Shown piece after piece: positions 3,702-28,851 of a stretch of 33,002 bases of DNA. Within the stretch, counting starts at the first letter, position 1, and the number at the start of each line of letters is the position of its first letter. Under the pieces are notes generated by a model. That model ran no database searches and was not told the DNA's origin. It was given only the letters and a program-made list of their open reading frames with translations. Source of the DNA: Bacteroidales bacterium (lineage in GTDB: Bacteria; Bacteroidota; Bacteroidia; Bacteroidales; UBA4181); NCBI GenBank assembly GCA_031264715.1, contig JAISDP010000196.1, forward strand, positions 1 to 33,002. The letters run 5' to 3'. The translations under genes and the position numbers were made by a program.

Positions 3702-5492
3702 ATGGTTACACGAACGTTTGATATACTGGATCAATACCGGACAAAATACCGGTTGGGCGATGCTTTGGCATGTAAGGTCACCGGCAAATGGGTTAAATAT
3801 AGTGGGGATGAATACATCAAATATGCCAACGATATCAGTTGCGGATTGTTGGCGATGGGATACAGTTCGGGCGACAAGATCGCTTTGATCTCGAACAACC
3901 GTCCCGAATGGAATTTTTTCGAAATGGGAATGGCGCAGATCGGGGTAATTTCCGTGCCCATCTACCCAACGATTAGCCTGGATGAATACCAACACATATT
4001 AAGCCATGCCGAACCCCGGATGTTAATGGTTTCGGATAAGCTGCTGCTCGAAAAGCTGCGGCCACTGTTCGAAAACAGTCCAACCATAGAACATGTCTAC
4101 TCTTTCAATAACATCGAAGGTGTGAACAATTGGAAGGAAATTGCTGTACAGGGAAACAACTCCTGTGAATTGTTATCGCAGGTGCAGCAAATAAAAGACG
4201 CGATAAAGCCCGATGATATGGCCACGTTAATCTATACATCGGGAACTACCGGTACGCCCAAGGGAGTGATGTTGTCACACAACAATCTGGTCAGCAATTT
4301 CAAAGCTACCTGCGACCGCAACTATCTTACCGCCGGCGCCCGTGCTTTGAGTTTCCTGCCTGTCAGCCATATATATGAGCGCATGATGAATTATCATTTC
4401 CAGAACCTCGGCATTGCAGTGTATTATGCTGAAAACATGGGAGCTATCATGGAAAATATCAGGGAAGTGCAGCCCCACATATTCAATACGGTTCCCCGGC
4501 TGCTCGAACGAATGTATATCGGCATCATCGGAAAAAGCAAAGAATTAAAAGGCATCAAAGGGAAAATATTTAACGACGCCATTAATATAGCTGTAAAGTT
4601 CGATCCCCGACACAAAAGCAATCTCGGTTACCGGTTCCGCCTGATGTTAGCCCGACGGTTGGTCTTTTCCAAATGGACTGCTATATTGGGCGGGCAGGTA
4701 CGCATCATCGTTTCAGGTGGCGCCCCGTTGCAAACACGGTTGACCAACCTGTTCAGCGCCATAGGTATTGACTTGCTTGAAGGCTACGGCCTTACGGAGA
4801 CTTCGCCTGTAATTGCCGTGAGCGATTTACGACGGGGCAGACCCAAACCGGGTAGCGTAGGGCCGGTACTCGACGGTGTGAAGATAAAACTGGACGAAGA
4901 TGGCGAAATATTGTGCAAAGGCCCGAATGTGATGTTGGGTTATTATAAAAATCCGGAACTAACAGCACAAGTAATTGATAGCGAAGGATATTTCCATACC
5001 GGCGATATTGGTGTATTCGATGAGAATGAATTTCTGACGGTTACCGATCGTAAAAAGGAAATCTTCAAACTGTCGAATGGCAAATACATATCGCCCCAGG
5101 TAATCGAAAACAAACTGAAGGAATCCCTGTTGATCGATCAGGTCATTGTGATCGGCGAAAACGAGAAATTTGCCAGCGCATTGATTTCCCCGAATTTTAC
5201 GCAACTGCACAACTGGTGCTATACCCGGGAAATTACATTTTCGGACAACAAGGAGTTGATACAGATTCCCGAAGTGATTGAAAATTTTCGGCAGGAAGTC
5301 AACCAGGTGAACAAACAAATGGGCGCTGCCGAGCAAGTCAAACGGTTCCGGCTGGTAGCAGACGAGTGGAGTGCGCAAACAGGCGAGCTTTCCCCGACCC
5401 TAAAGCTCAAACGCCGCCAGCTTACTGAAAAATACGCCAAGATTATCGATGAAATATACGTCTACTCACGAACCGAAAAAGCCGATAAATAA
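3702..5492 (+). CDS. Long-chain fatty acid--CoA ligase (FadD15/FAA1-like)
   Basis: AMP-binding motifs LIYTSGTTGTPKGVMLSHNN, EGYGLTETSP, YFHTGDIG, DRKKEIFKLSNGKYISP and ELSPTLKLKR. Start moved to ATG 3702 (MVTRTFD). Confidence 0.92.
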   Translation: MVTRTFDILDQYRTKYRLGDALACKVTGKWVKYSGDEYIKYANDISCGLLAMGYSSGDKIALISNNRPEWNFFEMGMAQIGVISVPIYPTISLDEYQHILSHAEPRMLMVSDKLLLEKLRPLFENSPTIEHVYSFNNIEGVNNWKEIAVQGNNSCELLSQVQQIKDAIKPDDMATLIYTSGTTGTPKGVMLSHNNLVSNFKATCDRNYLTAGARALSFLPVSHIYERMMNYHFQNLGIAVYYAENMGAIMENIREVQPHIFNTVPRLLERMYIGIIGKSKELKGIKGKIFNDAINIAVKFDPRHKSNLGYRFRLMLARRLVFSKWTAILGGQVRIIVSGGAPLQTRLTNLFSAIGIDLLEGYGLTETSPVIAVSDLRRGRPKPGSVGPVLDGVKIKLDEDGEILCKGPNVMLGYYKNPELTAQVIDSEGYFHTGDIGVFDENEFLTVTDRKKEIFKLSNGKYISPQVIENKLKESLLIDQVIVIGENEKFASALISPNFTQLHNWCYTREITFSDNKELIQIPEVIENFRQEVNQVNKQMGAAEQVKRFRLVADEWSAQTGELSPTLKLKRRQLTEKYAKIIDEIYVYSRTEKADK

Positions 5493-5523
5493 TTGAATAT
5501 TCATTATGGCTCTATAACGAATT

Positions 5524-5563
5524 AAACCTATCCGGTTTTGCGCAGTCATAAAGTACAAAACCG
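5524..5563 (+). promoter_or_regulatory. Possible ECF-type promoter overlapped by an 8-bp inverted repeat
   Basis: AAAC (5524-5527), 17 nt, then GTC (5545). CGGTTTTG (5533-5540) and CAAAACCG (5556-5563) form a perfect inverted repeat. Confidence 0.35.
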
Positions 5564-5619
5564 ATGTATAAGGAATGTTAATTTAAAATTTGTTATAGTT
5601 GAATTTAATTTTTTGAATC

Positions 5620-6138
5620 ATGAAGACGAATATGATAATGGTCATTGCCATTGCAGTTGTAACGAGCCTGGCAGTAGACGCTCAATCGCAAACGCCGCGC
5701 CCCTATTCGGGCAAAAGTCCCGGGGAAGTGAAGCAAGTGATGCGTCCCGAAGGCTTTACCACGCCGATGATGGGTCTGGACGACAAGCAGCGCGAAGAAC
5801 TCAAGAAAATCCGCACGGAACAGGTAAAGAGACGCATCCAAACACGTAACCTGCTGAAAGAAAAACACGCGAAACTCGAACTGCTTCAAACTGCTGATAA
5901 GCCGGATATGAAAGAGATCAACAAGGTAATCGACGAAATTGCAGCAGTGCAGGCACAGGAAATGAAAGCCAAAGCCGCCGACAGGCAAAAGACCAGAAGC
6001 CTGCTCACCGAAGAACAACGGGTATACTTCGATGCGCATGGCGACAAAATGGACAGGATGCATACGGACAGGAAAGTGCGCGCTGCTGATGGCGACCGCT
6101 TCCGCGGACAAAGAGGCGGCCCGGCAGGAAAAGGATGA
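5620..6138 (+). CDS. Spy/CpxP-family periplasmic protein (LTXXQ / heavy-metal-sensor-like)
   Basis: Signal peptide ending AVDA-Q, helical charged body, GLDDKQ and LLTEEQRVYFD (LTxxQ) motifs, Met/Arg/Gly-rich ends. Confidence 0.8.
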   Translation: MKTNMIMVIAIAVVTSLAVDAQSQTPRPYSGKSPGEVKQVMRPEGFTTPMMGLDDKQREELKKIRTEQVKRRIQTRNLLKEKHAKLELLQTADKPDMKEINKVIDEIAAVQAQEMKAKAADRQKTRSLLTEEQRVYFDAHGDKMDRMHTDRKVRAADGDRFRGQRGGPAGKG

Positions 6139-6168
6139 AAGTTTTCTGCTGGACAGGGGACAAAAATA

Positions 6169-6315
6169 CGGACGTTCGCAATTTCCGGCGCGGACGTTCG
6201 TTTACCTTCCATGCGAACGTTCGCATCCCGGAACGCAGACGTTCGCATCTGCACCCCGGGAACGTCCGCATCTGCACCTCGGGAACGTTCGCGTCCAAAG
6301 TTGCAGACATTCGCA
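6169..6315. repeat. Array of 7 palindromic cores (consensus about GC-G/A-A/G-ACGTTCGCA) at 22-23 bp period with variable linkers
   Basis: The 10-nt core RACGTTCGCA starts at 6171, 6193, 6216, 6238, 6261, 6284 and 6306 (steps 22, 23, 22, 23, 23, 22). Copy 3 sits in a perfect 16-bp palindrome, ATGCGAACGTTCGCAT (6211-6226). Confidence 0.85.
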
Positions 6316-6403
6316 CAGGAAGCCGGGAGCGGTAACGGTTTCCCTTCGAGGCAAAGACCGGATGTGATAACAAAAAAACAACGAACGATAAAACAGGAAA
6401 AAA

Positions 6404-7717
6404 ATGAACTGGAAAAAAGTAAACATGCTGAGTGCGGGCATCCTTTACATGGGGATCCTTTTAGCCTGCAACAAAGAAGAAAACACGGGTCTGACGGTTG
6501 CCTCCAACTTGTCGGATGATATGGTTTCGGTACGGGATTTTGGCGCCAAAGGAGATGGCAAAACCGATGATACGGAGGCTTTCCAAAAAGCGCTCCATTC
6601 ATTCGGGACGAGAGGTGGTACGGTATATGCTCCACGCGGGACGTATCTTTTCGCAGGCAGTTTGAATATCCCCCAGGCAGTGACATTAAAAGGCTCTTTC
6701 GAATCGGTTCCTGCCCATAACGGTATCCGCGACAAGGGACTTCCCAAACCGGGAGATGACGGAACTGTATTTTTGGTTACCGGGGGTAAAGGAAATGAAG
6801 ATGCAACGCCGTTTATCACCCTGAATACGAACAGCACGCTCCGTGGGGTTGTGTTATACTGGCCGCAGCAGGATCCGGAAAAAGAGCCCGACGCCTATCC
6901 GTGGGGAGTAGCCATGCGCGGAAAAAATCCTGCACTGCTCGACGTGGAAATGTTGAATCCCTACAACGCGATTGACGCCTCGAAAAACGAACGCGCCCTG
7001 ATCCGCAATATCAGCGGCCAACCGCTCCGGAGAGGCATCTATGTCGATGGCATTTATGACATCGGGCGGATTGAAAATGTCCACTGGAACCCGTGGTGGA
7101 GCATGAAGCCGGCTCTGTTCAACTGGCAGAAAGCGAACGGAGAAGCGTTTATTTTTGAGCGTACCGACTGGCATTACGTGTTCAATACATTCTGCTTCGG
7201 ATACCGGGTCGGTTACAAGTTCGGCGGCAGTAAGGCAGGCGTTTGCAACGGCAATTTTCTGGGCATCGGCGCCGACGCCTGTCATACGGCGGTGCTGGTG
7301 GAAAGAAGCGCTCCGATGGGACTGTTGATTACCAATGGCGAGTTTGTTGCGATGGACGGCGAAAATCCTGTCATGGTACGGGTAAATTCCGGTAACGAGG
7401 GAAATGTAACCTTCTCCAATTGCGCCTTTTGGGGGCCTTGCAACCAGAATGCCATTATCGACGGACGGGGAACGACAACCTTTTCCGACTGTATTTTCAT
7501 GCAATGGGATCGAAACCGCGAAGGACGCTATTCCGTCCAGGTAACCGGCGGCTCCGTGATGATTCGCGGATGTAATTTCATGACCGACAGTCCGCAGGTA
7601 TTCATTAGCGAAAACGTGTCGCGGGCAATTGTCGCCGATAATATGGTCAGGGGCAAAATCAGGATTGACAATCGGTCGGCTAATACCGTGATAAAAGATA
7701 ATCTGGGCAGCGAATGA
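6404..7717 (+). CDS. Right-handed beta-helix lipoprotein (pectate_lyase_3/GH28-like N-terminal motif), putative carbohydrate-active enzyme
   Basis: Lipobox LLAC, VSVRDFGAKGDGKTDDTEAFQKAL, GGTVYAPRGTYL, and Asn/Cys ladder repeats (FSNCAF, FSDCIF, IRGCNF). Confidence 0.8.
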   Translation: MNWKKVNMLSAGILYMGILLACNKEENTGLTVASNLSDDMVSVRDFGAKGDGKTDDTEAFQKALHSFGTRGGTVYAPRGTYLFAGSLNIPQAVTLKGSFESVPAHNGIRDKGLPKPGDDGTVFLVTGGKGNEDATPFITLNTNSTLRGVVLYWPQQDPEKEPDAYPWGVAMRGKNPALLDVEMLNPYNAIDASKNERALIRNISGQPLRRGIYVDGIYDIGRIENVHWNPWWSMKPALFNWQKANGEAFIFERTDWHYVFNTFCFGYRVGYKFGGSKAGVCNGNFLGIGADACHTAVLVERSAPMGLLITNGEFVAMDGENPVMVRVNSGNEGNVTFSNCAFWGPCNQNAIIDGRGTTTFSDCIFMQWDRNREGRYSVQVTGGSVMIRGCNFMTDSPQVFISENVSRAIVADNMVRGKIRIDNRSANTVIKDNLGSE

Positions 7718-10225: not shown

Positions 10226-10283
10226 GAAGAAATTCCGGTTGATATAATGGAAATACGCTTTATTTTTTCAACCGGAATTCTTC
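10226..10283. terminator. Inverted repeat between convergent ahcY and DUF4249-like genes (possible terminator or RNA-stabilising stem)
   Basis: AATTCCGGTTGA (10231-10242) and TCAACCGGAATT (10268-10279) form a perfect 12-bp stem, extendable by GAAG/CTTC, with a 25-nt loop. No classical U-tract geometry. Confidence 0.4.
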
Positions 10284-11237
10284 TTTCACCACAGTATCGG
10301 CATAGCGACTGGGAAATGCAGCGAAAAAGCCTGACACGGGGACGCCGCTGCCGACGCAACGGATATTTGTTTCCACATTGGCCGGCGGCCCGCTGAAAAT
10401 CGGGTTCGAACCGCGTATTTCCGAGCGCACATTGCTGATGAAAGTAGCATACTCTTTCGGAATGGCATTAATATTGAGCGTCACTTTGTCGCCGGCGCGC
10501 AGTATTTCAACTTCTGCGTCTGCGTCTTCGGGGGCCTGGTTCAGGTAGTAGCACGCCACTCCGTTTATGTATTGCCCGTTAATGAATTTGTCGTCCATTA
10601 TAAAAAACTTATTGATGGTAGAGTTGACGGTCACATCGTTGATGGCGACAAAGATGCTGTAAAAATTTTCTTCGGGCATATCCTGGGCGTACAGAAGCAC
10701 TTCCACCATGTTCTTGAAAACAGCGGACGCCTGCAACCCCACCGAATCGATAAAATTGATGCGGGTAAGATATGATGACGATTGATAATGTTCGGGGACA
10801 TGATCGCCGTCGAAATCAAGGCGGACATCCAGCGTATAGGTTTTACCCTCTTCGCCGTATACATCGGCGGCTGTCTGATACAAGCCGGCCACCGTATCAT
10901 TCCTGGCCAGCGGTATCACCTTTCCGTCGTTATCCGAAACAGTAACCGTAGCATTGTTGATGCCTTCGGGACTGTCGGTAGTGAAATAGCCTGCCGAACG
11001 GGTGATCCGTATCGAATGTTGCATGGTGTCGGTGGTGATATAGCCATAAATGACTAATCGTGGCGGCGCATCGTCGGTTTCAATGCTGATGCGTTCGGTG
11101 CAGGCGGCTGCTGCAATTACCGGGAGCAAACACCATAACGCCAGCCTGACAGGCCTGATGGATGATTGCCGCAGGAAGTCTGCCGTATATTTGGAACCTG
11201 ACAGGTTGCCAGGGTATCTGTTAAAAAATTTTTCCAC
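10260..11237 (-). CDS. DUF4249-like lipoprotein
   Basis: Lipobox AAAAC-TERISI, then PPRLVIYGYIT, NATVTVSD, GLYQT, GKTYTLDV, PPANVETNI and SGFF. The start is uncertain: GTG 11237 just after the lpxB stop is preferred over ORF-track 11282. Confidence 0.75.
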   Translation of the reverse strand: MEKFFNRYPGNLSGSKYTADFLRQSSIRPVRLALWCLLPVIAAAACTERISIETDDAPPRLVIYGYITTDTMQHSIRITRSAGYFTTDSPEGINNATVTVSDNDGKVIPLARNDTVAGLYQTAADVYGEEGKTYTLDVRLDFDGDHVPEHYQSSSYLTRINFIDSVGLQASAVFKNMVEVLLYAQDMPEENFYSIFVAINDVTVNSTINKFFIMDDKFINGQYINGVACYYLNQAPEDADAEVEILRAGDKVTLNINAIPKEYATFISNVRSEIRGSNPIFSGPPANVETNIRCVGSGVPVSGFFAAFPSRYADTVVKEEFRLKK

Positions 11238-11245
11238 TGTCGGAA

Positions 11246-12427
11246 TTAATATTTTGGGACCTGCTGCCCAATAACAGACCAAACTGTTTCGGCTGCTTTT
11301 TGGGAGGGCGTCATGTCGCCGGGTTTCAATTTCAGGAGATATTGCTGCGCTTCGTCCATTTGGGCTTTTGCCTTGTCGGATTGTTGCATCAGGTCAAGTA
11401 CTTTTGGGGTGATCAACGGTTCGCGGCAGTTTTCGAGCACAAATTCGGGAATCACAAACTTGTCCGCCAGTATATTGATCAGGTTGGCATATTTTGTCCC
11501 GGCAAAATGTTTCAATATCTTGTTGGTGACGTAACCGAACCTGTAAGCGATCACATGGGGTATGCCGAAAGCCGTGAGTTCCAGCGATACCGTCCCTGAT
11601 GCGGCCAGGGCGAACATGCTTGCCTGGAAAGCGGCGTACCGTTCGTATTGTCCCATAATGATGCGGTGAGGGACTTCCAGATCGGCAAAAGCAGCTTCCA
11701 CTTCGCGGGAAATAGCAGCTACCGACGGAATCACCACATACAGGTCGGGGAACGTTTTTTTCAGTTGCAGGAGCGCCTGCCTGAAAACGGGTATCAGCCG
11801 TTTGATCTCACTGTGGCGGCTTCCCGGCAGTACCGACATCAGTGTACATTGTTCGGGTATACCGTATTTTACCTTGAAGGCAACCGGATCGTTCACTAAG
11901 TTGGCCGTGGTTTCGATAACGGGATGTCCCACGAAAGTGCAATTCAGCCCGTACTTTTCAAAATAGGGCGGTTCGTAAGGGAGTAGCGCCATCAGCCGGT
12001 CAACTAACCGGGCGACGGTTTTGGCGCGACCTTTTTTCCATGCCCACACCTGCGGCGCGACATAATGTACTTTGGGTATTTTGCAGCCTTCCTTTTTCAA
12101 CCGGGCAAGCACCTGATGTACAAAACCCCAGCTATCAACCGTTACCACCACATCGGGACGCTGCTCGCGGATATCGGCCACAACCTGTTTCACCCGCCGC
12201 AGGATGACCCGCAGTTTGGGCACCACTTCCATGATCCCCATGACGGAAATTTCGGAAATGTCGAACAGGCTTTCGAAACCCATCGCGATCATGGTTTCGC
12301 CGCCCATCCCGGCAAACCGGATGCCCGGGTCCTTATCATGCAAAGCCTGCATCAGCCTCGATGCAAGCAGGTCGCCCGACGGCTCGCCGGCAATAATGTA
12401 TACTAACTTTTGCTGTCTGTTGTCCAA
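11246..12427 (-). CDS. lpxB: Lipid-A-disaccharide synthase
   Basis: IIAGEPSGDLL, YVAPQVWAWK, FVGHP, LPGSRHSEI, ASGTVSLE, NLINIL...IPE. The start is probably TTG 12427 behind an A-rich leader; ATG 12508 is the alternative. Confidence 0.95.
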   Translation of the reverse strand: MDNRQQKLVYIIAGEPSGDLLASRLMQALHDKDPGIRFAGMGGETMIAMGFESLFDISEISVMGIMEVVPKLRVILRRVKQVVADIREQRPDVVVTVDSWGFVHQVLARLKKEGCKIPKVHYVAPQVWAWKKGRAKTVARLVDRLMALLPYEPPYFEKYGLNCTFVGHPVIETTANLVNDPVAFKVKYGIPEQCTLMSVLPGSRHSEIKRLIPVFRQALLQLKKTFPDLYVVIPSVAAISREVEAAFADLEVPHRIIMGQYERYAAFQASMFALAASGTVSLELTAFGIPHVIAYRFGYVTNKILKHFAGTKYANLINILADKFVIPEFVLENCREPLITPKVLDLMQQSDKAKAQMDEAQQYLLKLKPGDMTPSQKAAETVWSVIGQQVPKY

Positions 12428-12525: not shown

Positions 12526-12556
12526 CAAAGTTACAAAATTACAAATTGTTCGCAAC
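12526..12556 (-). promoter_or_regulatory. Bacteroidetes sigma70 promoter upstream of lpxB (tandem -7 boxes)
   Basis: On the - strand, TAACTTTG (12533-12526) has a second box TAATTTTG (12541-12534) beside it, and GTTG lies 19 nt upstream of the first box. Confidence 0.6.
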
Positions 12557-12567: not shown

Positions 12568-13455
12568 TTAGGCATTTGCCCGCGCATCATCAATACCTTT
12601 GATGGTTTTGCGCAGGAATGTCTCGAACTGTACGGCAAACTCACGGCGATGCAAGGCAAATTCCACGGTGGTTTTCAGGAAGTCGAGCTTATTCCCGATA
12701 TCGTACCGTTTACCTTCGATTACCGACGCGATGATATTTTCCTGTTTCAGGAGCAGGCGCAAGGCATCGGTAAGTTGCACTTCGTTGCTTTTACCGCGTT
12801 CGGTACGTTCGATGGCCGGGAAAATCTGTGGCGTCAGGATGTAGCGTCCCGCTATTGCCAGGTCGGACGGCGCTTTGTCACATTCGGGCTTTTCCACCAA
12901 TTCCGACAGTTGCATGATCCGGTTGTTCAGTTGTGTGCCGCCCACAATCCCGTAGCGTGAAACCTTGTCGCGGGGAACGCGCTCCACAGCTATGGCGCAT
13001 TGGTGATACTGGTCGTAAGCGTCGACCAGTTGCTGGGTAACCGGGATCACAGAGTTGATAATGGTATCGCCCAGGAGTACGGCAAAAGGTTCGTTGCCGC
13101 AGTGGAACCGGGCATGGTAGATGGCATCGCCCAGGCCGCAGAGTTCCTTCTGGCGGATGAAATGGATATTAGCCATATCCTCGATGTGGCGGAGCTGGTT
13201 GTACAGCGTCTCGTCCTCCTGTTCCTGTATGCGCGCATCCAGTTCGGGATTCCTGTCGAAATGGTCTTCGATGGATCGCTTGCCTTTACCGGAAATAATC
13301 AAAATATCTTCGATGCCCGAATCGACACATTCCTGCACCACGTATTGGATGACGGGCGTGTCGATAATGGGCAGCATTTCCTTTGGTTGCGCCTTGGTTG
13401 CAGGCAAAAAACGAGTCCCGAGACCTGCTGCGGGGATAACTGCTTTTCTGATCAT
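12568..13455 (-). CDS. galU: UTP--sugar-1-phosphate uridylyltransferase, GalU family
   Basis: KAVIPAAGLGTRFLPATKAQPKEMLPI, IEDHFD, VEKP, GRYIL, EVQLTDA, RYDIG. Start set to ATG 13455 (MIRKAV); the upstream extension is translated repeat. Confidence 0.93.
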   Translation of the reverse strand: MIRKAVIPAAGLGTRFLPATKAQPKEMLPIIDTPVIQYVVQECVDSGIEDILIISGKGKRSIEDHFDRNPELDARIQEQEDETLYNQLRHIEDMANIHFIRQKELCGLGDAIYHARFHCGNEPFAVLLGDTIINSVIPVTQQLVDAYDQYHQCAIAVERVPRDKVSRYGIVGGTQLNNRIMQLSELVEKPECDKAPSDLAIAGRYILTPQIFPAIERTERGKSNEVQLTDALRLLLKQENIIASVIEGKRYDIGNKLDFLKTTVEFALHRREFAVQFETFLRKTIKGIDDARANA

Positions 13456-13464
13456 GTTTACGAT

Positions 13465-13556
13465 AGCGTTTGTAGCGTTTACAGCGCTCCTGGCGCTCAT
13501 AACGCTTGTAGCGCCGGGGCGCTTTACGTTATGAGCGTTCGGGCGTTATGAACGCC
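13465..13556. repeat. Degenerate 9-bp tandem repeat folding into a hairpin, between the kinase and galU
   Basis: AGCGTTTGT, AGCGTTTAC, AGCGCTCCT, GGCGCTCAT, AACGCTTGT, AGCGCCGGG at exact 9-nt steps from 13465. There is an 11-bp IR, CGCTCATAACG (13494-13504) / CGTTATGAGCG (13527-13537), with an inner AGCGCC/GGCGCT stem. Confidence 0.75.
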
Positions 13557-14551
13557 TATAATACATAAGGTTTAATTACTCTTGCATTGATTTTCCGGAG
13601 GTTTACCACTAATTTGCTCAGGGTATCATCGTCGGGATACATGCCGATGATGGCGCCTCCCGAGCCCGAAAATTTGGCCGAAGCGCCCGATAAACGCGCA
13701 ACCCGCACAAGCTCCATGTTATTTTCGGAGATATTCATGATTTTGCACCGGAGATCGAAATTGTAATTGATCAACTGGTTCAAAGTCTTGTAATCCCTGT
13801 TGATGATGGCCTGTTTGCCTTCCACTGCCACATCGCCCAGCTCGCGGATGGTCTGGTGTACCAGTTCGTCGCCATTGTTGTAGCGTTCTTTCAGGTTGTT
13901 GAATACAGGCCCCGACACTTTGCTCAGGTCGGTCTTGTAGGCCATGTACAGTTTGGGAAGCATTGCAGGGTCCAGTCGCTGATACTTGCCGTGATTGTGC
14001 TTTTCCATGTATTTCCTGTCGAAATCCATATACACGCAGCCTTCATAAACCTGTATTACCCTGTCCTGCAAGCCGGCATTGATGGACAATTCCTCGGTTT
14101 CGGCAGCAAGCACGAGACTGGGCACCACTTCAACCGGTACCTGCACGCCGTAGAACTGCATCAAGGCGCGCATGGCGGCGGTAGCGATGGCGCTGGATCC
14201 GGCCATACCTACCTGGCGCGGTATGGACGATTCGTAGCGTATGGTGAAGTTCTTGTTTGCCAGCTTGATCCGGTTCAAATCACAATATTCGCAGAAGCGC
14301 TTGATTACGGCTTTAATCAGGCGCCTGCCTCCGTAATAACCGTTTTGCCTGATGGTTTCGGTCAGATGGTATATGTTGCGGAAACTGTTCCGGTCAACCT
14401 CCATTTCCTCTATTACCAGTTCGGGAGTTTGGTACAGTGACACGATCGCCCCGAAATTCTTGACAATAATCGAAATCGTTTTTCCAAAATACCCGTCCGA
14501 CGGATTTCCCAGCAATCCGGCACGAGCATATGCCCTACATTCTATGATCAT
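13556..14551 (-). CDS. GHMP-family sugar kinase, glucuronokinase-like
   Basis: GHMP ATP loop IPRQVGMAGSSA and C-terminal KFSGSGGA. ARAGLLGNPSDGYFGKTIS, GYYGGRRL and AGLQDRVIQVYEGCVYMDF resemble plant glucuronokinase motifs as I recall them. Confidence 0.8.
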   Translation of the reverse strand: MIIECRAYARAGLLGNPSDGYFGKTISIIVKNFGAIVSLYQTPELVIEEMEVDRNSFRNIYHLTETIRQNGYYGGRRLIKAVIKRFCEYCDLNRIKLANKNFTIRYESSIPRQVGMAGSSAIATAAMRALMQFYGVQVPVEVVPSLVLAAETEELSINAGLQDRVIQVYEGCVYMDFDRKYMEKHNHGKYQRLDPAMLPKLYMAYKTDLSKVSGPVFNNLKERYNNGDELVHQTIRELGDVAVEGKQAIINRDYKTLNQLINYNFDLRCKIMNISENNMELVRVARLSGASAKFSGSGGAIIGMYPDDDTLSKLVVNLRKINARVIKPYVL

Positions 14552-14586: not shown

Positions 14587-14686
14587 CAAAAATAAGCATT
14601 TTGTTAACATGCGACGAAAAAAGACGAAAAAAGCGCATAATTGCAACCCTGTAGAGCCTGTAGAGTTTGAAAAACATTTATCTTTG
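14587..14686. promoter_or_regulatory. Divergent promoter region (kinase-galU leftward, ECF sigma rightward)
   Basis: The - strand has TATTTTTG (14594-14587) with TTCG 20 nt upstream; the + strand has TATCTTTG (14679-14686). Two perfect tandem duplications lie between them: GACGAAAAAA x2 (14613-14632) and CCTGTAGAG x2 (14648-14665). Confidence 0.6.
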
Positions 14687-14702
14687 CCAAAAAAATACGC
14701 GA

Positions 14703-15275
14703 ATGTCCGAGTTCGATTCTGTCAATATTGCTGTAAAGGAACTGAAGGACGGTAATAAAAAAACATTTGAATGGATGTTTAAAGCCTATTACCGCGGGTT
14801 GTGTTTTTATGCAGAAGGGATCGTTGGGGAGAAAGAAGCCGCCGAAGAAATCGTAAGCGATTTCTTTATGAAATTATGGGAGAATCACGAAATCATACAC
14901 ATCACCACTTCATTGCAGGCCTATTTGTATAAAGGCATCTACAACAACAGTCTGAAATATCTGGAACACATTAAAGTATTAAATAAATACCGCGGATATG
15001 GCCGGTATATGGCTACTAACCACGACTTATTCCAACCGCAGGCCGATCAGCCTTTATCCATGCTGATATCCCGGGAGACGGTGGCCGAAATAGAAAATGC
15101 CATAGACGCCTTGCCCGCACAATGTAAGGAAGTATTCTCCCTGGCGCGTCTGGAAGGATTAAGTTATCAGGAAATAGCAGAAAAATTAGATATTTCCATT
15201 AATACAGTTCGTACACAGATCACCCGCGCAATGACTAAACTGCGGGAATCACTTGGAAAATTGATAAAAAATTAA
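14703..15275 (+). CDS. ECF RNA polymerase sigma-70 factor (Bacteroides expansion type)
   Basis: AEEIVSDFFMKLWE, AYLY, LPAQCKEVFSLARLEGLSYQEIAEKLDISINTVRTQITRA (region 4 HTH). Start ATG 14703 lies downstream of the -7 box. Confidence 0.93.
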   Translation: MSEFDSVNIAVKELKDGNKKTFEWMFKAYYRGLCFYAEGIVGEKEAAEEIVSDFFMKLWENHEIIHITTSLQAYLYKGIYNNSLKYLEHIKVLNKYRGYGRYMATNHDLFQPQADQPLSMLISRETVAEIENAIDALPAQCKEVFSLARLEGLSYQEIAEKLDISINTVRTQITRAMTKLRESLGKLIKN

Positions 15276-15292
15276 AAAAATTTATTTTCCCT

Positions 15293-15323
15293 GTCACATC
15301 TTTTTTGTCCTAACCGGTCTTAT
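15293..15323 (+). promoter_or_regulatory. Possible ECF-dependent promoter directly downstream of the sigma gene
   Basis: GTCAC, a T-rich spacer, then GGTCTTAT. Position and form resemble motifs that follow PUL ECF genes; this is inference only. Confidence 0.3.
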
Positions 15324-15685
15324 AATGTGATCGGCTTATCCGGTGAAGGATAACCCGTATCACATATCTGTAAAAAGTTATTCAAAATAAATCACTTAAC
15401 CTGTTTTGCCAATGGAGTAATCTGCAAGTAAATTAAAATACTGATCCTTTGCGAAAATAATAGATGTTTCGTAGAGGAGGAAAATTATAATTAAGAGATG
15501 CGAAATAAACAAGAAAGATATAACGGCTTTATGATGTGATGTGTAGCAAACAGTGCGTCGAATGTGTGTACATTGGACAGGATGCAACAACATTGAACAT
15601 TTATATCATTGATGTGTTATTTATTTTTCATCCCTAAAGAGAATTATACGAGCGAATTTTATAACAAATCTTAAATTACGGTTTT

Positions 15686-18600
15686 ATGCAAAAACTATTA
15701 GAAAATAGATTTTTCAAATTGAATGGCGAGGCTTTAAAACTATTGGGTTTATTGCCTGTCATGGTTTTTATGTTATCTGCTCCTTTATACGGGCAGGATG
15801 CACGCCAGATAACAGGCGTGGTGAAGAGCGCTGATGGCGAAACGATGCCAGGCGTAAACGTGGTTGAGCGAGGGACAACCAACGGTATAGCAACCAATAT
15901 TGACGGACAGTATTCTATCAGAGTCCCCAACAACGATACGGTCGTTTTGATTTTTTCGTCCGTTGGCTATGACCGTCAAGAGATTACCATTGGGAATTTG
16001 AGGACTGTCAATGTTGTGATGAACGAATCGAGCCAGCAACTTGACGAAGTGGTGGTAGTAGGTTATGGTATTCAGTCAAAAGCGAGTGTCGTGGGATCTA
16101 TTGTGCAAGCTTCCGGAGACGATTTGAAACGTGCAGTGAGCGGTTCCGATATTACTGCTGCTTTATCCTCGCAATTGCCGGGGGTTATCTCCTTGACGTC
16201 TTCGGGCGAACCGGGTGGAATCCTTACCGGGGAAAGTTCGACCAACCTCTATATTCGCGGGCAAAATACATGGAACAACTCAGGTCCGCTGGTACTTGTC
16301 GACGGGGTTGAACGCCCCTTAATGAGCGTTGATCCCAACGAGGTTGAATCGGTTTCGGTTTTGAAAGATGCTTCGGCAACAGCTGTTTACGGGGTAAAAG
16401 GCGCCAACGGCGTACTTCTTATCACTACCAAACGCGGAATCGAAGGTAAGACTAAATTGTCTGTCAATTATACGGCAACAGGAATCATGTTGTCTAAATT
16501 ACCCGGAATGTTGGATTCCTATGACGCTTTGATGGCAAAAAATGAAATGATAGAACGCGAGGTTTCTCTTCGCGAAGCCTCGTGGGCTGATTATACTCCG
16601 TACGAAGTCGTGGCGCGTTACAAGTACAGGCAATCGCCTGAAGACAAGTATATTTTTCCGAATGTTGACTGGAAAGATGAGATGTTCAAAAAGATGGGAT
16701 TTCAGCATCGGGTAAACGTCAATGCACAGGGCGGAAACAAGACGATCAAGTATTTTGGTCAACTGTCCTATTTATACGAAGGCGATATGATGAAGAAGTA
16801 TGACAACGGTAAGGGATATGACCCAAGTTATGCCGCCAACCGTTTCAATTTCAGAAGCAATATTGATGTTAACCTGACAAGTACTACGAAATTTAAAATG
16901 AACCTGGCAGGATCATTCAGTCAAAAGAATACCAATTATAATAACACCGGTTCTACCGGTCGTGCTGACCAATGGATGTGGGCTGCCGTATACGGTTTGG
17001 CGCCGGATTTATTCCCTGCACAGTATCCCGACGGGTATTGGGGCGCTTATTCCGAGGGAGGTAACAATACCGTAAATCCCGCAGCAGTTGTTGCCAATAT
17101 GGGCGTGCGCAAAGCGCGGGAAACCCAGTTGCAGTCCAATTTCGTGCTGGAGCAGGATTTGAAAATGATTACCAAAGGTTTGAATGCGGCGGTAACGCTG
17201 GCTTTTGATAACAGGATACGATCTGAAGGCGGTATTTACGACGTTGCCAATCATGGCAGGCCCGGCGAAGAAGCGACAAATATTGCTTACAGGCAGATTT
17301 ATCCTTCCAGGTATCTTGAAAATCCGGATGATGAGAGCTATTATACCGTATATTTGCCCGCCTCTTCAGGCGACTACGACTGGTATGTGCGCCCGTGGAG
17401 CATCCGCCAGGAGGGAGTCGCTACAGGTCTGGAAAATAGCTGGACGAGCAGATTGCCGGTCGACAGGTTTTTAATGTATCAGTTTCAATTAACTTATGCA
17501 CGAAAATTTGGCAGTCATTCGGTAGGGGCGACAGGAGTATTCAAACGGGAAGAAAGCGCTAAGGGAGCCGAATTTAAACGTTACAGGGAAGACTGGGTTT
17601 TCCGCGTCACCTATGATTACGCTTCGCGCTATATGTTCGAGTTCAACGGCGCTTATAACGGTTCCGAAAAATTCGGTCCGGGTTACCGGTTCGACTTTTT
17701 CCCGTCGTTAGGACTGGGATGGTATATCTCAAACGAACGCTTTTTCTCGAATATCAAATGGGTCGATCGTCTTAAAGTACGGTACAGCATAGGTATAGCA
17801 GGGGCTGACGATGCAGGCGGCAGATATCTTTATGAACAGCAGTATGCATACGGCGGCGCTGCCCATTTGGTCTATAATGCCAATAACAATAGCCCGTATT
17901 CCTTTTACCGCATCGCCAGCAAAGCCAATCCCGATGCCCGGTGGGAACAGGCTTTGAAGACCAATTACGGTTTGGAATTCGGCATATTGAAAAACCTTGT
18001 TTCATTGAGTTTTGATTACTTTACCGAAAACCGTACCGACATTTTGATTGCCGGAAACAACAGGTCTGTTCCGGTATATTATGGATTCAGTCCGCCTGCG
18101 GTCAATTCGGGTCAAGTTAAATCGAACGGGTTCGAAATAGAGTTGGGGCTTAACAAATCCATTAATAAAGACATTGATGTCTGGGCGAAATTTTCGTTAA
18201 CGCATACCCGGAATAAGGTTATATTCAGGGATGACCCGCCTCTGGCCGATGATCACATGAAAGCCCAGGATTTTAGGATTGGCCAAAATAAGAGAGTGCT
18301 GAACACCGGATATTTTTACAATAACTGGGATGAGGTATGGGCGAGCGCGCCTACTGAAACCAACGATCTCCAAAAGCTTCCGGGTTATTATGACCAGATT
18401 GATTACGATGGCAATGGCGTCATTAGCAGTACTTACGATTCAGCTCCGGTGGGATATTCCGAAGTGCCTGAAAATACAGGCAGTTTGACGCTGGGCGCGT
18501 CATACAGGGGGCTGTCCTTCACTATCCAGTTCTTTGGGGCGAACAATAGCAACCGTTACATTGGCTGGGATAATTACCGGAACAATACGAATGTTGTATA

Positions 18601-18940
18601 TGATCATGTAGGCAATTACTGGTCGAAAGACAATCCGAATGCAAGTTCATTTCTTCCCCGGTGGCAAACGTATGCGGAAAACATCGGACACTATTATCTG
18701 TACGATGCTTCCTTTATCAGATTACAAAATGTAGAGTTGGGTTATTCTTTCTCCAATGCCGGATGGGCTAAAAAGGCAGGAATTTCCAATTTAAGGATTT
18801 TTATGAACGGCAATAATTTGTTTTTTTGGTCGAAATTACCTGACGACCGGCAAACAACCTATTCCGGTGCGGGCAGTGCAACCGAGGGTTCATATCCTTC
18901 CACCAGGAGAATCAATTTAGGAGTAGAAATATCATTTTAA
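15686..18940 (+). CDS. susC: SusC/RagA-family TonB-dependent transporter (first)
   Basis: [57 protein letters not shown], C-terminal GVEISF. No STN-type N-terminal extension is visible. Confidence 0.96.
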   Translation: [1084 protein letters not shown]

Positions 18941-18960
18941 CAAAGAAAAACTGAATAAAA

Positions 18961-20775
18961 ATGAAAAGGATAATCGATTATATATCTATTGCCGTTGTTG
19001 CATTATGTTTTACTTCGTGCGAGGAATACCTGGACAGACCATCGCAGTCGAATATTACGGAAAGGGATATCTATGTAAATTTCAGGAGTTTTCAAGGTTT
19101 TGTAGAAGAATTGTACAACTGTATTATCAGTCCGAGCGAATGTGGCGCATGGAACAATTATTCGTTTGCCGATGAAAACCTGGGGCCAAGGATTTACAAT
19201 TTTGACACCGGTAATTATTGGGGTGGCGAAACGTATTTCCACAACAATGGCAATCAGGCTGTAAGTACCACGGATGGTCAATCCAGGACCAAGCGCATCT
19301 GGGAATATGCGTGGTATGCTCTCGCCAAAGCAAATATTGTGCTGGATAAAATCGAAGAGGAAGATTTGTTTGCAGGTAACGCGGATGAAAAAAAATTGAT
19401 CCGCGGACAGGCGCTTTTTTTCAGAGGGTGGTTCTATTTTGAAATATGCCGTTTCTGGGGCGGGATGCCTTATATTGACAGGCCGCTGACTGAAACGGAA
19501 AATTACGAAGACCCTTATTTTCAAAGAATGAACTTTCGGGAGACAGCGCTGAAAATGGCGGCTGATTTCAGGGAAGCGGCTGATTTGTTGCCTGAACACT
19601 GGGAAGATATGTATGGAAAAGCGGACGGCGTTCCACAGGGAAGGAATGACAACAATCAATACATCAACAAGTTTCATGCCCTGGGGTATCTTGGTAAGGC
19701 TTTACTGTTTGCCGCCAGTCCGATGATTAACGAGGAAGCCACCGGCGTTAACGCATTTGACCCGGCGCTGTGCGCCCAGGCAGCTGACGCTTTTGGCGAA
19801 CTGTTGACGCTTGCCGAAAATACCAACAGGTATACGCTGGCGTCGTGGAATGAGTACAATCAGATTTTTTTCTGCGCAAACCGGAACGCCGCTCCCTACC
19901 GGAACGGCTTGAATGAAGTGATCATGCTGCCCACGACTTATGACGCAACACGGTTCAGATGGTCTACAATAGGCGCGATATCTCCTAACGACATGGGGTT
20001 GAATGCAGGCTCCAGCGCTGATGTGCCGACACATAACATTGTCAAAAATTTCGCCACAGCGAATGGACTTCCGCAAGCAGAGGACCCTGCTTTTGATCCG
20101 CAAAAACCATGGACTAATCTTGAGCCTCGTTTTTATAAGGTTATTGCGAAGCACGGCGATAAAATACACAATGGAACGACGGGACGACAGGTTCTTGAAT
20201 GTCAAAACGGCGGATTCCACCGCACAATACAGTATCCGACCGTTACCGGGTATTACCAGAGGAAGTTCAGCGGATTGGATCCGAATGCTTACAGGGCTTC
20301 GCCCGATTGTTATGCGGCTGCTCCTTACCTGAGGCTTGCAGATGTTTACCTGATGTATGCCGAAGCGGTAAATTTCATGACGGGCGGCGGACCCAAAGCG
20401 AAAACCGGCAATTATTCCAAAACTGCCGAGGATGCATTGAACATGGTAAGGCAGCGCGCCCAGATTCCGACTGTTGATCCCAAATATACGGCTGATAAAA
20501 ATGTGTTTTTTGAGGAGCTTGTCCGTGAAAGAGCGGTAGAATTATTTATGGAAGGCGCCCGCTTTTGCGATTTGCGACGCTGGAGCAGAAACGATGATCC
20601 GCGTTACCTGGAAAAAACAGGGATATATTTTGATTTAGACGGCAATGGTGAACCTGTCGCAGTTAGAGAGCAAGTTATTACTAAAAGGGCGGCTGATAAA
20701 AAACACAACTGGTTGCCTGTCATAACGAAATACACTACGATGTACAGTACTTTTCCGCAAAATCCAGGATGGTAA
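18961..20775 (+). CDS. susD: SusD/RagB-family glycan-binding lipoprotein (first)
   Basis: Lipobox FTSC-EEYLD, GQALFFRGWFYF, YLRLADVYLMYAEA, RERAVELFMEGARFCDLRRW, and QNPGW terminus. Confidence 0.95.
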   Translation: MKRIIDYISIAVVALCFTSCEEYLDRPSQSNITERDIYVNFRSFQGFVEELYNCIISPSECGAWNNYSFADENLGPRIYNFDTGNYWGGETYFHNNGNQAVSTTDGQSRTKRIWEYAWYALAKANIVLDKIEEEDLFAGNADEKKLIRGQALFFRGWFYFEICRFWGGMPYIDRPLTETENYEDPYFQRMNFRETALKMAADFREAADLLPEHWEDMYGKADGVPQGRNDNNQYINKFHALGYLGKALLFAASPMINEEATGVNAFDPALCAQAADAFGELLTLAENTNRYTLASWNEYNQIFFCANRNAAPYRNGLNEVIMLPTTYDATRFRWSTIGAISPNDMGLNAGSSADVPTHNIVKNFATANGLPQAEDPAFDPQKPWTNLEPRFYKVIAKHGDKIHNGTTGRQVLECQNGGFHRTIQYPTVTGYYQRKFSGLDPNAYRASPDCYAAAPYLRLADVYLMYAEAVNFMTGGGPKAKTGNYSKTAEDALNMVRQRAQIPTVDPKYTADKNVFFEELVRERAVELFMEGARFCDLRRWSRNDDPRYLEKTGIYFDLDGNGEPVAVREQVITKRAADKKHNWLPVITKYTTMYSTFPQNPGW

Positions 20776-20801
20776 AAGAATGTATTGTCTAATTATTAAT
20801 A

Positions 20802-23800
20802 ATGTATCAAATGAAAAATAAGATATTATATTCAGTTCTTTTTCTATTAATGTTTTGTACTTGTCATACTTATGCGCAAAGTGAACCGGGCAGCATTAGC
20901 GTTTCATCCATCGTTTCCGATACGGATGGAAATCCTGTAGAAAATGTCGAAATCTTCAGTGATCCGGCTTATGCCAAAACCGGAGCCGACGGACAGTTTA
21001 CGATTTCGGTATCGCCGGACGCCCTTTTAATCATAAAGGCAAACGGATATCAGACGGTTAAGTTGCTGGCGGGGGATGTTCAGAACATGTCGAATATCAG
21101 TCTCGCAAGTAATGACTTATTATACGGTAAAAAAATAAACCTGGCTTTCCGTCAATCTTATCAGGGTGATCTGACAGGCGCTGTAACATACGTTGACGCC
21201 GATGAAATACTGAAATACGACGAAACAGGCGCTTCCGGTCTTCTGAGTAACAGAACCCTGGGCATGTTGGGTTCCAATCAGATAAGGGGATTGGGGGTTA
21301 ATTTCGACGTTGGCAATATCATGACTGTTTCTACCCAGGGAACAGCGGCCATGGTTGTTGTAGACGGTATTCCGCGGGAATTGACCTATTTGCGCGCGTC
21401 CGAGATTGAAAGCATCACGGTTTTGAAAGATGCGAATGCGGCAGTTCTTTACGGAACAGCGGCAGCCAATGGCGTGATTCTGGTCACTACAAAGAGAGGA
21501 GAAGCCTATAAGAAGCAGGCTGACTTTAAGGTAACATACGGTATCAATAAGCCGATGGCGTTCCCCAAGTTTTTAAATTCGGCGGATTATATGGAGTATT
21601 ACAATCAGGCGCGCCGAAACGATCAACTGGATGCCGTGTTCACGGATATCGACAATTACCGTTCGGGTGATCCATATCGTTATCCAAACGTCGACTATTT
21701 CTCAAGGGATTATTTAAGGCCGTTCTACAGGTCTTTTAACGCCGAAGGGCAATTTTCAGGAGGGAACAGTGTGGCAAAATACTATTCAAATTTTGGATGG
21801 AACAATCAAAACACCATATACAGTTTCGGCGAAGGCAAAGATTCGCGAACAAACGAGTTCCATGCACGATTGAATGGCGATTTGAAAATTAACAGCTGGA
21901 TCAATACCCGGCTTGACGGAAGTGTGACTTTTCAAAATCAAGTTGTGCCGCGTATCTCCGCCAGTGACGGTTATTGGGCTGCGGCGCGCAGCATCCGCCC
22001 GTACGAATATACTCCGCTGATCCCCATAGACCTGATTGAACCGGATAATCCGGTATTGGAGTCCGCCAAGAGAATCATCGACGGGAAGTATCTTTTAGGA
22101 GGATCCGACGCTTACCGCACAACACCCATTGGCGATATGTATGGCGCCGGCGAAAGTGAAATCGGATTTCGTAACTTTTCGTTAGGTAACCAGATTAATT
22201 TTGATTTTAACCAATGGATAGAAGGATTGACATTAAATACCAATTTCGGTTTCGATTTCTGGTCGGGGTTTTCAACAACAGTTGCCAATATCTATGCCAC
22301 CTATTTTCCAACTTTCGATAACAACAACAGGATTACCGGCTTGCAGAAATTCAATGCCGACGAAGCGGCAACCTCTCCGCTGATTGAAGGAATTGCACTA
22401 AGGAGACGGTTTGGGTATAACCTGTCATTGCAATACGACAAGATGTTTGATGATATACACCACATTACGGCAATCCTTCTTGGATACGGCAATACGTACA
22501 AACAGTCGGGCGACCTGCAAGGGTCAAAGTTCGCGCATTTGGGCTTGCATTTGGGGTATATCTACAACAAGCGCTATATGATTGATTTCAGCAGCGCTTA
22601 CGTCAATTCGACACGGCTTGCGCCGGGGCACCGGGGCGGTTTTTCGCCTACGGCAGGGCTGGCCTGGGTAATGAGTTCCGAAGAGTTTATGTCCTCGGCA
22701 GATTTTATTGATTATTTGAAAATAAGGTTTTCGGCAGGTATCATTAAATCGGACCTCATGACCTCAAACAACTCCGCTCCCGGCTATTTCTGGTATGACG
22801 ATAATTATGGAGGTTCCACATCCTGGGGTTGGGGCGACGGGCTACGAAGCCGCAGCAGTACGATCGCAAACAGAACGCGTAATTTTGATATGACCTTTGC
22901 TGAACGTAAAGATTTGAACCTTGGTTTTGAATCGCTGTTGTTTGGGAACAGGTTGGGTTTGGAAGCCAATTATTTTCTTACTTTAAACGAAGGTATGCTT
23001 GTGCGCTCGACAAACGAGTATCCCAGTTTCCTGGGCACCTTTGTGCCGTACGAAAACTTCGAAAATGTGAAATACCAGGGCTTCGAACTTGGAGCGAGCT
23101 ATGTAGAGAAATGGAATGACTGGTCGTTGAGGGTTGGAGCCAATTTGCTGTATTCTGTCTCGGTAAAAACCAAAGTTAACGAATTGCGTGCCTACCCGCA
23201 TTTGAACAGGGTGGGAACGCCTCACGACGGTTATTGGGGATTGGTAAGTCTCGGCTTTTTCGAGAATCAGGCAGACGTAGACAACAGTACGCCGCAGGTT
23301 TTTGGAGGCACAGTACGCGAAGGCGACCTTAAATATCAGGCGCAGAAAGAGAATGGAAGAATTGACACTGATGACGAAGTTCTTTTGGGACGCTGGCAGG
23401 CTCCGTGGTCGGGAGGTATAAATTTTACGCTGTCCTACAAAAAAATCTCGCTTTTTGTGATAGGTGAAGGCCGTTCCGGCGCCAAGCCGTTTAAGGAAAA
23501 TAATTATTTCTGGCTGGAAGGCACGCGTAAATACTCCGAAGTGGCATTAAACAGTTGGACGCCTGAAACAAGAAATACCGCTGTCTATCCCAGACTGTCG
23601 TCCCAGTCGAATCCAAACAATAACCGCCGCTCAACATTTTGGCAGTATAATGCTGATTACTTTGAAATCAGCAAAATACAGTTGAATTATCAGATGCCCG
23701 AATTGTTGACCAGCGCCTTGCACATGAAAAGTTTGGATGTATTCGCTTATGTAACCCGTCCGCTCATTCTTGCTAAAGAAAAAGAAATGAGGTTAATTCA

Positions 23801-23864: not shown

Positions 23865-23894
23865 TTGTTTTCGAATAAATTAAATAATGTTGAA

Positions 23895-25709: not shown

Positions 25710-25727
25710 TTTAAAAAAACAAGTAGC

Positions 25728-26783: not shown

Positions 26784-26844
26784 ATTTTTCCTGCAAATAT
26801 TCCTGATTTAACCTGAATTTGATAAATTTAATTTAATTTTGAAT

Positions 26845-27005
26845 CCCTTTGACCGGGAAGACAAAGACCCTTTGCTCGGGAAGACAAAGACCCTTTGCTC
26901 GGGCGGACAAAGACCCTTTGCTCGGGCGGACAAAGATCCTTTGACCGGGGGGGCAAAGACCCTTTGACCGAGGGGGCAAAGACCCTTTGACCGGGAAGGT
27001 AAAGA
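26845..27005. repeat. Seven exact-length 23-bp tandem units, CCCTTTG-(ACC/CTC)-purine-rich N7-CAAAGA
   Basis: Units: ccctttgaccgggaagacaaaga, ccctttgctcgggaagacaaaga, ccctttgctcgggcggacaaaga x2, tcctttgaccgggggggcaaaga, ccctttgaccgagggggcaaaga, ccctttgaccgggaaggtaaaga. The junctions form the dyad CAAAG-N3-CTTTG. Confidence 0.95.
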
Positions 27006-27146
27006 CCTGTGATAAGCGGAATATAGCGCTGTTGAGCCGAATTTGCAATTCGGCTCGGAACACGAGGCAATTTGCAATTGCCTGTGATAAGACCTCGGAG
27101 GCGGGACGTAGAACTCCCGCTCCCGGAGGTTTTAGAAACCTCCGGG
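27006..27146. repeat. Cluster of four REP-like hairpins
   Basis: GAGCCGAATT-TGC-AATTCGGCTC (27034-27056); AGGCAATT-TGC-AATTGCCT (27065-27083); GCGGGA-N8-TCCCGC (27101-27120); CCCGGAGGTTT-TAG-AAACCTCCGGG (27122-27146). CCTGTGATAAG is a direct repeat at 27006 and 27081. Confidence 0.8.
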
Positions 27147-27213
27147 GTTTCACTTGACCAAATCAAAATGTAATATCGTCAGAATCCTCTTAAAAAACCA
27201 AAAATCAAATTCT

Positions 27214-28797: not shown

Positions 28798-28851
28798 TAA
28801 ATAAGCATCTTTTTTAAGCCTGAAAGTAGAATTAACCAAACATATATCGAA

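Follow-up and report, generated by a model that had tools for sequence, protein, structure and literature searches.

A conserved gene pair of a glucuronokinase-family kinase and a GalU-type uridylyltransferase, a candidate route for UDP-glucuronate salvage in Bacteroidales and other bacteria

We analysed a 33,002-nucleotide stretch of DNA (the window; contig JAISDP010000196.1 of assembly GCA_031264715.1) from a Bacteroidales bacterium, in which two neighbouring genes on the minus strand encode a GHMP-type sugar kinase and a sugar-1-phosphate uridylyltransferase of the GalU family. The source genome is a metagenome-assembled genome (MAG) with 57% completeness, and the single sequencing run that contains the stretch is a termite-gut metagenome DNA run, which may be its source. 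Both open reading frames (ORFs) were present at the positions given in the initial annotation. The kinase, P0001 (331 amino acids; 13556..14551, minus strand), was assigned to the glucuronokinase family from its ORF and translation, its Pfam domains, its similarity to an Arabidopsis protein and the conservation of family-invariant residues. The transferase, P0002 (12568..13455, minus strand), was assigned to a GLGDA-type group of GalU proteins through the TIGR01099 galU model. Its longest ORF spans 12568..13500 and encodes 310 amino acids, which leaves a gap of 55 bp between the two genes. Because the alignment with homologues begins at about residue 16, and because an ATG closes the spacer at the Met16 point in 9 of 10 same-genus loci, the true start is probably Met16, with its ATG at 13455 and a gap of 100 bp. 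With this start, the claim that the kinase lies 100 bp upstream of a co-directional GalU gene holds.

P0001 matched both halves of the GHMP kinase fold in Pfam above cut-off (GHMP_kinases_N, PF00288, 48.7 bits; GHMP_kinases_C, PF08544, 27.6 bits). In a BLASTP comparison it was 44% identical over 319 amino acids to a protein named "putative glucuronokinase [Arabidopsis thaliana]" (E 6e-93), and P0160, named "glucuronokinase 1 [Ziziphus jujuba]", was 46% identical to it (257 bits, E 2.7e-71). An exhaustive, profile-free homologue search with P0001 yielded 2642 matches at E up to 0.001. When P0001 was scored against 12 listed NCBIfam models of GHMP families, it passed none of them; the best was the mevalonate kinase model (60.7 bits, cut-off 163), and the heptose kinase and galactokinase models gave 42.5 bits (cut-off 600) and 16.8 bits (cut-off 443), respectively. 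The closest solved structure was a heptose kinase (45.5 bits), and no solved glucuronokinase structure was among the 8 PDB sequences that matched P0001.

When 18 window and representative sequences (330-344 amino acids) were aligned with 2 plant sequences, 34 columns were invariant, and the family motifs GNPSD..G.T, IP...G..GSSA and G.QD.V.Q......M.F were all kept in P0001. The four kinase motifs quoted in the initial annotation were likewise found in P0001, where they aligned with the same motifs of the Arabidopsis glucuronokinase. A Lilium peptide quoted in the report on the plant enzyme aligned with P0001 residues 11-24 (PMC2823444). In a tree of 40 rows made by a quick search, the careful maximum-likelihood search being unfinished, P0001 fell in a set of 19 rows of representatives of about 330 amino acids (SH-aLRT support 99), which plant kinases and kinases fused to a second domain joined by short branches. 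The outgroups stood on long branches (5.9 changes per column for galactokinases and at least 1.7 for heptose-kinase-like proteins from related genomes). These sequence comparisons support the assignment of P0001 to the plant-type glucuronokinase family rather than to the mevalonate, heptose, fucose or galactose kinases, whose models all scored 61 bits or less and below their cut-offs. The report on the Arabidopsis enzyme describes a strict specificity for D-glucuronate (PMC2823444), and the zebrafish member of the family is likewise reported to be specific for D-glucuronate (PMC3938481).

P0002 scored 363.3 bits against TIGR01099 (cut-off 326.8) and passed this equivalog model. Its Pfam matches above cut-off were PF00483 (NTP_transferase) and PF12804; IspD remained below threshold and PF01704 (UDPGP) was absent. 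The best solved relative was Bacillus subtilis YngB (310 bits). For the UDP-glucose pyrophosphorylase (UGP) of Klebsiella pneumoniae, G17, R21, E32, D137, E201, K202 and E238 are reported as catalytic or nucleotide-binding residues (PMC11796359). The catalytic residues were intact in P0002: its positions 26, 30, 41, 204 and 240 were conserved throughout the clade of kinase-linked GalUs, and the Mg-ligand Asp (145) and Glu203 were conserved in every GalU-type row that was aligned.

In contrast to these residues, three positions set the kinase-linked GalUs apart. P0002 reads GLGDAI and LLGDTI, as had been noted initially, where solved GalUs read GLGHAV and either LLGDDI or ILADDL. The references for this comparison were the GalU of Escherichia coli K-12 and the plasmid copies of Bacillus amyloliquefaciens, Paraburkholderia, Azospirillum and Sinorhizobium meliloti. 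At position 125, which corresponds to the His of GLGHA, all 53 kinase-linked sequences had Asp and all five references had His. Position 146 was Thr or Ser in 53 of 53 linked sequences and Asp, Asp, Asp, Val and Met in the references, and position 237 was Lys in 53 of 53 versus Ala or Ser. Four solved GalUs (YngB and three Burkholderia enzymes) had His, Asp and Ala at the three positions. The residues equivalent to position 146, Asp134 of YngB and D131 of Pseudomonas aeruginosa UGP, are reported to contact the glucose moiety (bioRxiv 10.1101/2020.11.30.405621; PMC11796359). This position was variable in enteric GalUs too, in which it was Val. The added Lys237 lies close to the active site's edge and precedes a Glu that is itself at that edge.

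The signature followed the kinase in other settings. GalU copies located upstream of the kinase in Acidobacteriota also had Asp, Ser and Lys. In two MAGs that carried two GalUs each (one Gammaproteobacteria, one Acidobacteriota), the kinase-linked copy had Asp and the unlinked copy His, and a Planctomycetota genome whose kinase lacked an adjacent GalU contained a GalU of the Asp/Ser/Lys type elsewhere in the genome. A small protein family has a GalU-type N-terminal domain fused to the kinase (P0136, P0394-P0400, P0406 and P0421). In these fused forms, position 125 was Asp in 6 of the 8 proteins in which the region was present, position 146 was Asp in none of the 9 in which the column was present, and position 237 was Arg or Lys in 6 of 10 and His in 1. 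The motif differences are real, extend over the whole clade and track the kinase. A 650-amino-acid Planctomycetota ORF with a GalU-like stretch was also encountered (L131; G242:C79, ORF 442-2391); it scored 182 bits, had the His-type motif and showed no detectable kinase similarity in its locus.

To place the pair in a wider context, we turned to its distribution. Among 41 genomes (this one and 40 relatives), 14 carried the kinase and 12 the GalU type, each of the latter also having the kinase. The GalU type lay directly downstream of the kinase in 12 of 12 loci with flanks. The remaining 2 kinase-bearing genomes had a partial kinase match, which in at least one of them was cut at a contig end, and none of the 27 kinase-free relatives had the GalU type at E up to 1e-20. 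Stops were counted in four of the GalU-type matches among the 41 genomes; they probably fall where the alignment extends upstream of Met16. In a sample of 200 Bacteroidota genomes with completeness of at least 90%, in which GalU-type matches were taken at E up to 1e-40, the kinase occurred in 2 and the GalU type in 3. The two genes were adjacent in both kinase-bearing genomes, in one of them in reversed order, and the third GalU-type match was weak (151 bits). Most of the Bacteroidota searched, in both the relatives and the 200-genome sample, had no GalU-type gene.

We then drew 80 kinase loci from one-genome-per-species contigs, 74 of which were assessable and 6 of which were cut by contig ends. 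The GalU type was directly downstream in 59 loci (56 full and 3 partial matches) and directly upstream in 3, all from Acidobacteriota, giving adjacency in 62 of the 74 assessable loci. The labels of the loci included Bacteroidales, Cytophagales, Sphingobacteriales, Ignavibacteriales, Calditrichaceae, Gemmatimonadota, Chitinispirillaceae, Acidobacteriota and a Gammaproteobacteria MAG, among others. The conservation of adjacency that the initial annotation proposed to examine across Bacteroidota thus extends well beyond this phylum. The pair was also found on a mobilizable 235-kb plasmid of Rufibacter tibetensis (NZ_CP012644.1, locus 4950-6888), where the genes are annotated just as "GHMP kinase" and "GalU"; a plasmid-borne pair is consistent with the patchy distribution and with horizontal spread. 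Because the arrangement is conserved across loci and the two genes co-occur across genomes, the pairing is far beyond chance. An adjacency that is accidental or purely local, with no functional coupling, would agree with the fact that other neighbours were not conserved and that lpxB follows the pair in this genome's locus alone. Nevertheless, a pairing that recurs across phyla, in both gene orders and also as a fusion, already contradicts chance, and we regard this explanation as extremely improbable. Because GalU-type genes were essentially confined to kinase-bearing genomes of Bacteroidota, the distribution also argues against the GLGDA-type GalU being the housekeeping UDP-glucose enzyme of this phylum.

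We propose that the kinase and GalU genes form one transcription unit that would salvage free D-glucuronate. The GHMP kinase would phosphorylate glucuronate at C1 with ATP to give glucuronate-1-phosphate, and the specialised GalU-type enzyme would convert glucuronate-1-phosphate and UTP to UDP-glucuronate and pyrophosphate. The UDP-glucuronate could then feed glycosyltransferases and other enzymes that convert UDP-sugars. Judging from the sequences, this conversion of glucuronate to UDP-glucuronate by way of glucuronate-1-phosphate is the probable function of the pair, if by no wide measure. It is also the function suggested in the initial annotation, whose proposed computational checks all turned out in its favour, and comparative genomics supports it; the identity of the sugar and hence of the product, the direction of flux, the co-transcription of the genes and the downstream use of the product are what we infer. 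A more specific proposal is that a few active-site changes turned a GalU into the GLGDA-type enzyme, a uridylyltransferase dedicated to glucuronate-1-phosphate, which forms, with the kinase, a compact and horizontally mobile salvage cassette of many phyla, carried on a plasmid in Rufibacter and sometimes accompanied by a hexuronate importer. We give this proposal an even chance.

P0002 could instead be an ordinary UDP-glucose pyrophosphorylase, with the kinase co-regulated but feeding another route, such as a catabolic or signalling use of glucuronate-1-phosphate, or with the pair supplying UDP-glucose. The GalU equivalog score and the intact catalytic residues agree with this alternative, as do the kinase homologues that lie without a GalU beside transporter, triosephosphate isomerase (TIM)-barrel and oxidoreductase genes, and one genome with such a GalU-less locus (G241) had only a canonical His-type GalU. 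However, an ordinary enzyme would hardly be expected to be missing from all 27 kinase-free relatives and to give a single weak match in the 198 kinase-free genomes of the Bacteroidota sample. The kinase-linked GalUs also carry a distinct signature, coexist with canonical copies in two genomes and occur as a domain fused to the kinase. Moreover, the zebrafish report states that no other pathway that uses glucuronate-1-phosphate is known (PMC3938481). Taken together, these observations make the ordinary-enzyme explanation quite unlikely.

Information on the sugar came from related operons. In two loci (L038 and L070), the gene order was kinase, GalU, DctP, DctQ and DctM, the last three encoding a tripartite ATP-independent periplasmic (TRAP) transporter, and in a third (L053) the same TRAP genes lay upstream. 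The best solved relatives of the L038 TRAP binding protein were 4X8R (249 bits), 4N8Y (247 bits) and 4N91 (236 bits). According to the respective reports, 4X8R is glucuronate-bound and 4N8Y galacturonate-bound (PMC11668362), 4N91 is a D-glucuronate binder, 4MHF binds both sugars, and a carboxylate-binding Arg is typical of TRAP systems (PMC7660916). The binding protein thus resembles glucuronate-bound and galacturonate-bound structures to nearly the same degree. This similarity leaves room for the same two-step logic with another acidic sugar (D-galacturonate, 4-O-methyl-glucuronate or another hexuronate), which would give the matching UDP-uronate. A termite gut would be expected to supply plant-derived uronic acids, and at 44-46% identity, similarity to the plant enzyme does not settle which sugar the kinase prefers. 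On the other hand, the two kinases of this family that have been characterised, those of Arabidopsis and zebrafish, are each reported to act specifically on D-glucuronate (PMC2823444; PMC3938481), and the plant galacturonokinase is described as having almost no sequence identity with the glucuronokinase family (PMC2823444). The conserved motifs of that family are all retained in P0001. We therefore consider another hexuronate unlikely, though less so than an ordinary UDP-glucose enzyme.

Several observations weigh against glucuronate salvage by a dedicated pair. On the side of the kinase, the GHMP phylogeny suggested in the initial annotation separated the family from the outgroups by branch length, but the quick tree contained no single supported clade of plants, fused forms and bacteria against the outgroups, and its deep node was unresolved. 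On the side of the transferase, P0002 passes the GalU cut-off and keeps all glucose-1-phosphate residues except the variable Asp, and Asp in place of His brings in a negative charge whose benefit for handling an anionic sugar is not obvious. The reference set for the signature was small, with five sequences and a further four solved GalUs compared through their alignments to P0002. His was kept at position 125 in 2 of 8 fused forms, a basic residue was lacking at position 237 in 3 of 10, and an unlinked, otherwise canonical Acidobacteriota GalU (G243) had Arg at this position. The zebrafish pyrophosphorylase domain is reported to be inactive in vitro (PMC3938481), and consequently no dedicated glucuronate-1-phosphate transferase working with this kinase has yet been proven in any organism. 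We found no biochemical characterisation of any bacterial member in a literature that omits most subscription journals, which is not proof of absence; the work on the subject comprised studies in plants and zebrafish, synthetic applications of the plant enzyme and mentions in omics data.

The physiological context adds to these objections. No glucuronate transporter adjoins the pair in the window. The glucuronate isomerase UxaC was found in 5 of 5 genomes tested (this one and four relatives), and nucleoside diphosphate (NDP)-sugar dehydrogenase genes were found in 41 of 41 relatives, so that the organism does not obviously need salvage; the route would thus supplement others, as it does in plants, instead of being the sole source of UDP-glucuronate. 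The alpha-glucuronidase families GH67 and GH115 were not found in 3 same-genus genomes, one of which is 57% complete; they were found in 2 of the 5 genomes searched, both outside this genus. Adjacency also had exceptions, since 12 of the 74 assessable loci had no adjacent GalU despite at least 900 bp of room. In six loci labelled Eubacteriales, Aminicenantes, Acidobacteriota and Planctomycetota (L073, L082, L083, L085, L088 and L090), kinase homologues with 50-58% identity had no adjacent GalU. The kinase lay at about 4001-4990 in these loci (16-1005 in L073), together with varying subsets of xylose-isomerase-like TIM-barrel, TRAP transporter, Gfo/Idh/MocA oxidoreductase and 3-keto-disaccharide-hydrolase-family genes, a gene set that is reminiscent of oxidative glycoside-cleavage pathways. 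Because the GalU-less kinases sit with such genes, some members of the family may serve another pathway.

The proposed salvage by the pair resembles several known systems. In plants, glucuronokinase (Arabidopsis GlcAK, At3g01640) and UDP-sugar pyrophosphorylase (USP) form the salvage arm of the myo-inositol oxygenase pathway; the kinase belongs to the same family as P0001, at 44% identity, and the two steps from glucuronate through glucuronate-1-phosphate to UDP-glucuronate are the chemistry proposed here (PMC2823444). Unlike USP, the second enzyme of the pair is a bacterial GalU-type transferase of about 295 amino acids (PF00483), and the two genes are arranged as a putative operon. We take plant USP to belong to the Pfam family UDPGP (PF01704). 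This family was not found in the 41 relatives, but the search controls were silent too, so this result says little. In zebrafish, DrGKUP is a bifunctional glucuronokinase and putative UDP-glucuronate pyrophosphorylase in which the same kinase family is joined to a nucleotidyltransferase. Among the best 150 of the homologue representatives, 47 were long forms with a C-terminal kinase; the N-terminal domain of 46 of these had no significant BLAST similarity to P0002, P0136 being the only one with similarity. Unlike the zebrafish protein, whose transferase domain is reported as inactive in vitro (PMC3938481), the pair would place the two activities on separate proteins.

Canonical GalUs (E. coli GalU, B. 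subtilis YngB and GtaB, and the UGPs of P. aeruginosa and K. pneumoniae) have the fold family and the catalytic residues in common with P0002. The P0002 type differs from them in Asp for the GLGHA His, Thr or Ser for the glucose-contact Asp and an extra Lys, and in Bacteroidota it occurs almost solely together with the kinase. The L-fucokinase/GDP-fucose pyrophosphorylase Fkp of Bacteroides is alike in that a GHMP anomeric kinase and a nucleotidyltransferase convert a salvaged free sugar to a nucleotide sugar. However, Fkp combines both activities in a single fused polypeptide and its product is a GDP-sugar, and P0001 scored only 20.1 bits against its model (NF009948, cut-off 721). The AmgK/MurU system for MurNAc salvage in Pseudomonas is also a two-gene unit of an anomeric sugar kinase and a uridylyltransferase of the same broad superfamily. 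AmgK is not known to be a GHMP kinase, and P0002 differs from MurU, with 50.4 bits against a MurU cut-off of 250.

Plants are already known to carry out this chemistry, homologues of the kinase in bacteria have been on record since 2010 and the name "glucuronokinase" is assigned automatically; the route itself has been demonstrated in plants and fish, and no bacterium has yet been shown to use it. The remark in the initial annotation that it knew of no characterised bacterial example agrees with our finding no bacterial biochemical study, but the family itself is not new in bacteria: homologues in Solibacter, Dyadobacter and Verrucomicrobium were listed by Pieslinger et al. in 2009/2010 (PMC2823444), and 28 of the 120 closest clusters already carry the name "glucuronokinase" in JGI's automatic annotation. 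If the salvage reading is true, the pair would give bacteria a second way to make UDP-glucuronate, from which capsules, lipopolysaccharide modifications and exopolysaccharides are built, without UDP-glucose dehydrogenase and with reuse of glucuronate set free from plant or host glycans. A distinct GalU subfamily, now annotated as plain GalU (for example on the Rufibacter plasmid), would then have a name and a substrate. The compact bacterial enzymes could serve in one-pot UDP-glucuronate synthesis, and the pair would be a working comparator for the zebrafish fusion, whose transferase half has never shown activity. If the pair is a dedicated cassette, it would be the first bacterial route of its kind and would contain the first demonstrably active kinase-partnered transferase outside the plant USP family.

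Features around the two genes bear on whether they are transcribed together. We take TAnnTTTG to be the Bacteroidetes -7 promoter consensus. The TANNTTTG pattern had one minus-strand match between 12568 and 14700, namely TATTTTTG at 14587..14594, which ends 36 nt before the kinase ATG. The one recognisable promoter described in the initial annotation thus corresponds to this single match. Because the pattern was not enriched in the window as a whole (29 matches versus 24.2 expected), only the position of the match before the kinase is suggestive. A sigma-70-type promoter was rejected, as the best sigma-70 match overlapped the kinase start codon and such a promoter is not credible for this phylum. 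The pattern scan found no TAnnTTTG promoter-like match in the kinase-GalU spacer, and the terminator scan called no intrinsic terminator between the two genes.

RNA folding placed a strong palindromic hairpin in the spacer (13474..13556, minus strand), with no T-run after it. It had a folding energy of -44.3 kcal/mol (z -4.69), none of 200 shuffled sequences was equally stable, and it was composed of palindromes of the AACGTT/GCGTTATGA type. Same-genus spacers ranged from 54 to 123 nt; similarly strong palindromes were present in 4 of 10, this locus counted, and absent from others. The hairpin might stabilise the RNA or represent a repeat element.

Downstream of the pair lie lpxB and then a DUF4249 gene. 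Because two adjacent TAnnTTTG matches at 12526-12541 (minus strand) lie directly upstream of the lpxB ATG (12508), lpxB probably has its own promoter. With these matches, and with lpxB adjacent to the pair in no other locus, its membership in the kinase-GalU unit was rejected. The longest DUF4249 ORF (10260-11282, minus strand) has a TTG start and overlaps the 3' end of lpxB by 37 bp; the true start is probably further downstream, judging from the ORF layout. Divergently upstream of the pair, a polysaccharide-utilisation-type locus occupies 14667-32742 on the plus strand. It contains an extracytoplasmic-function (ECF) sigma factor, two SusC/SusD pairs, a BT_3987-like/DUF5627 protein, a 547-amino-acid protein without a Pfam match and two heparinase II/III-like proteins, the last of which suggest that the target of this locus is a glycan containing uronic acid.

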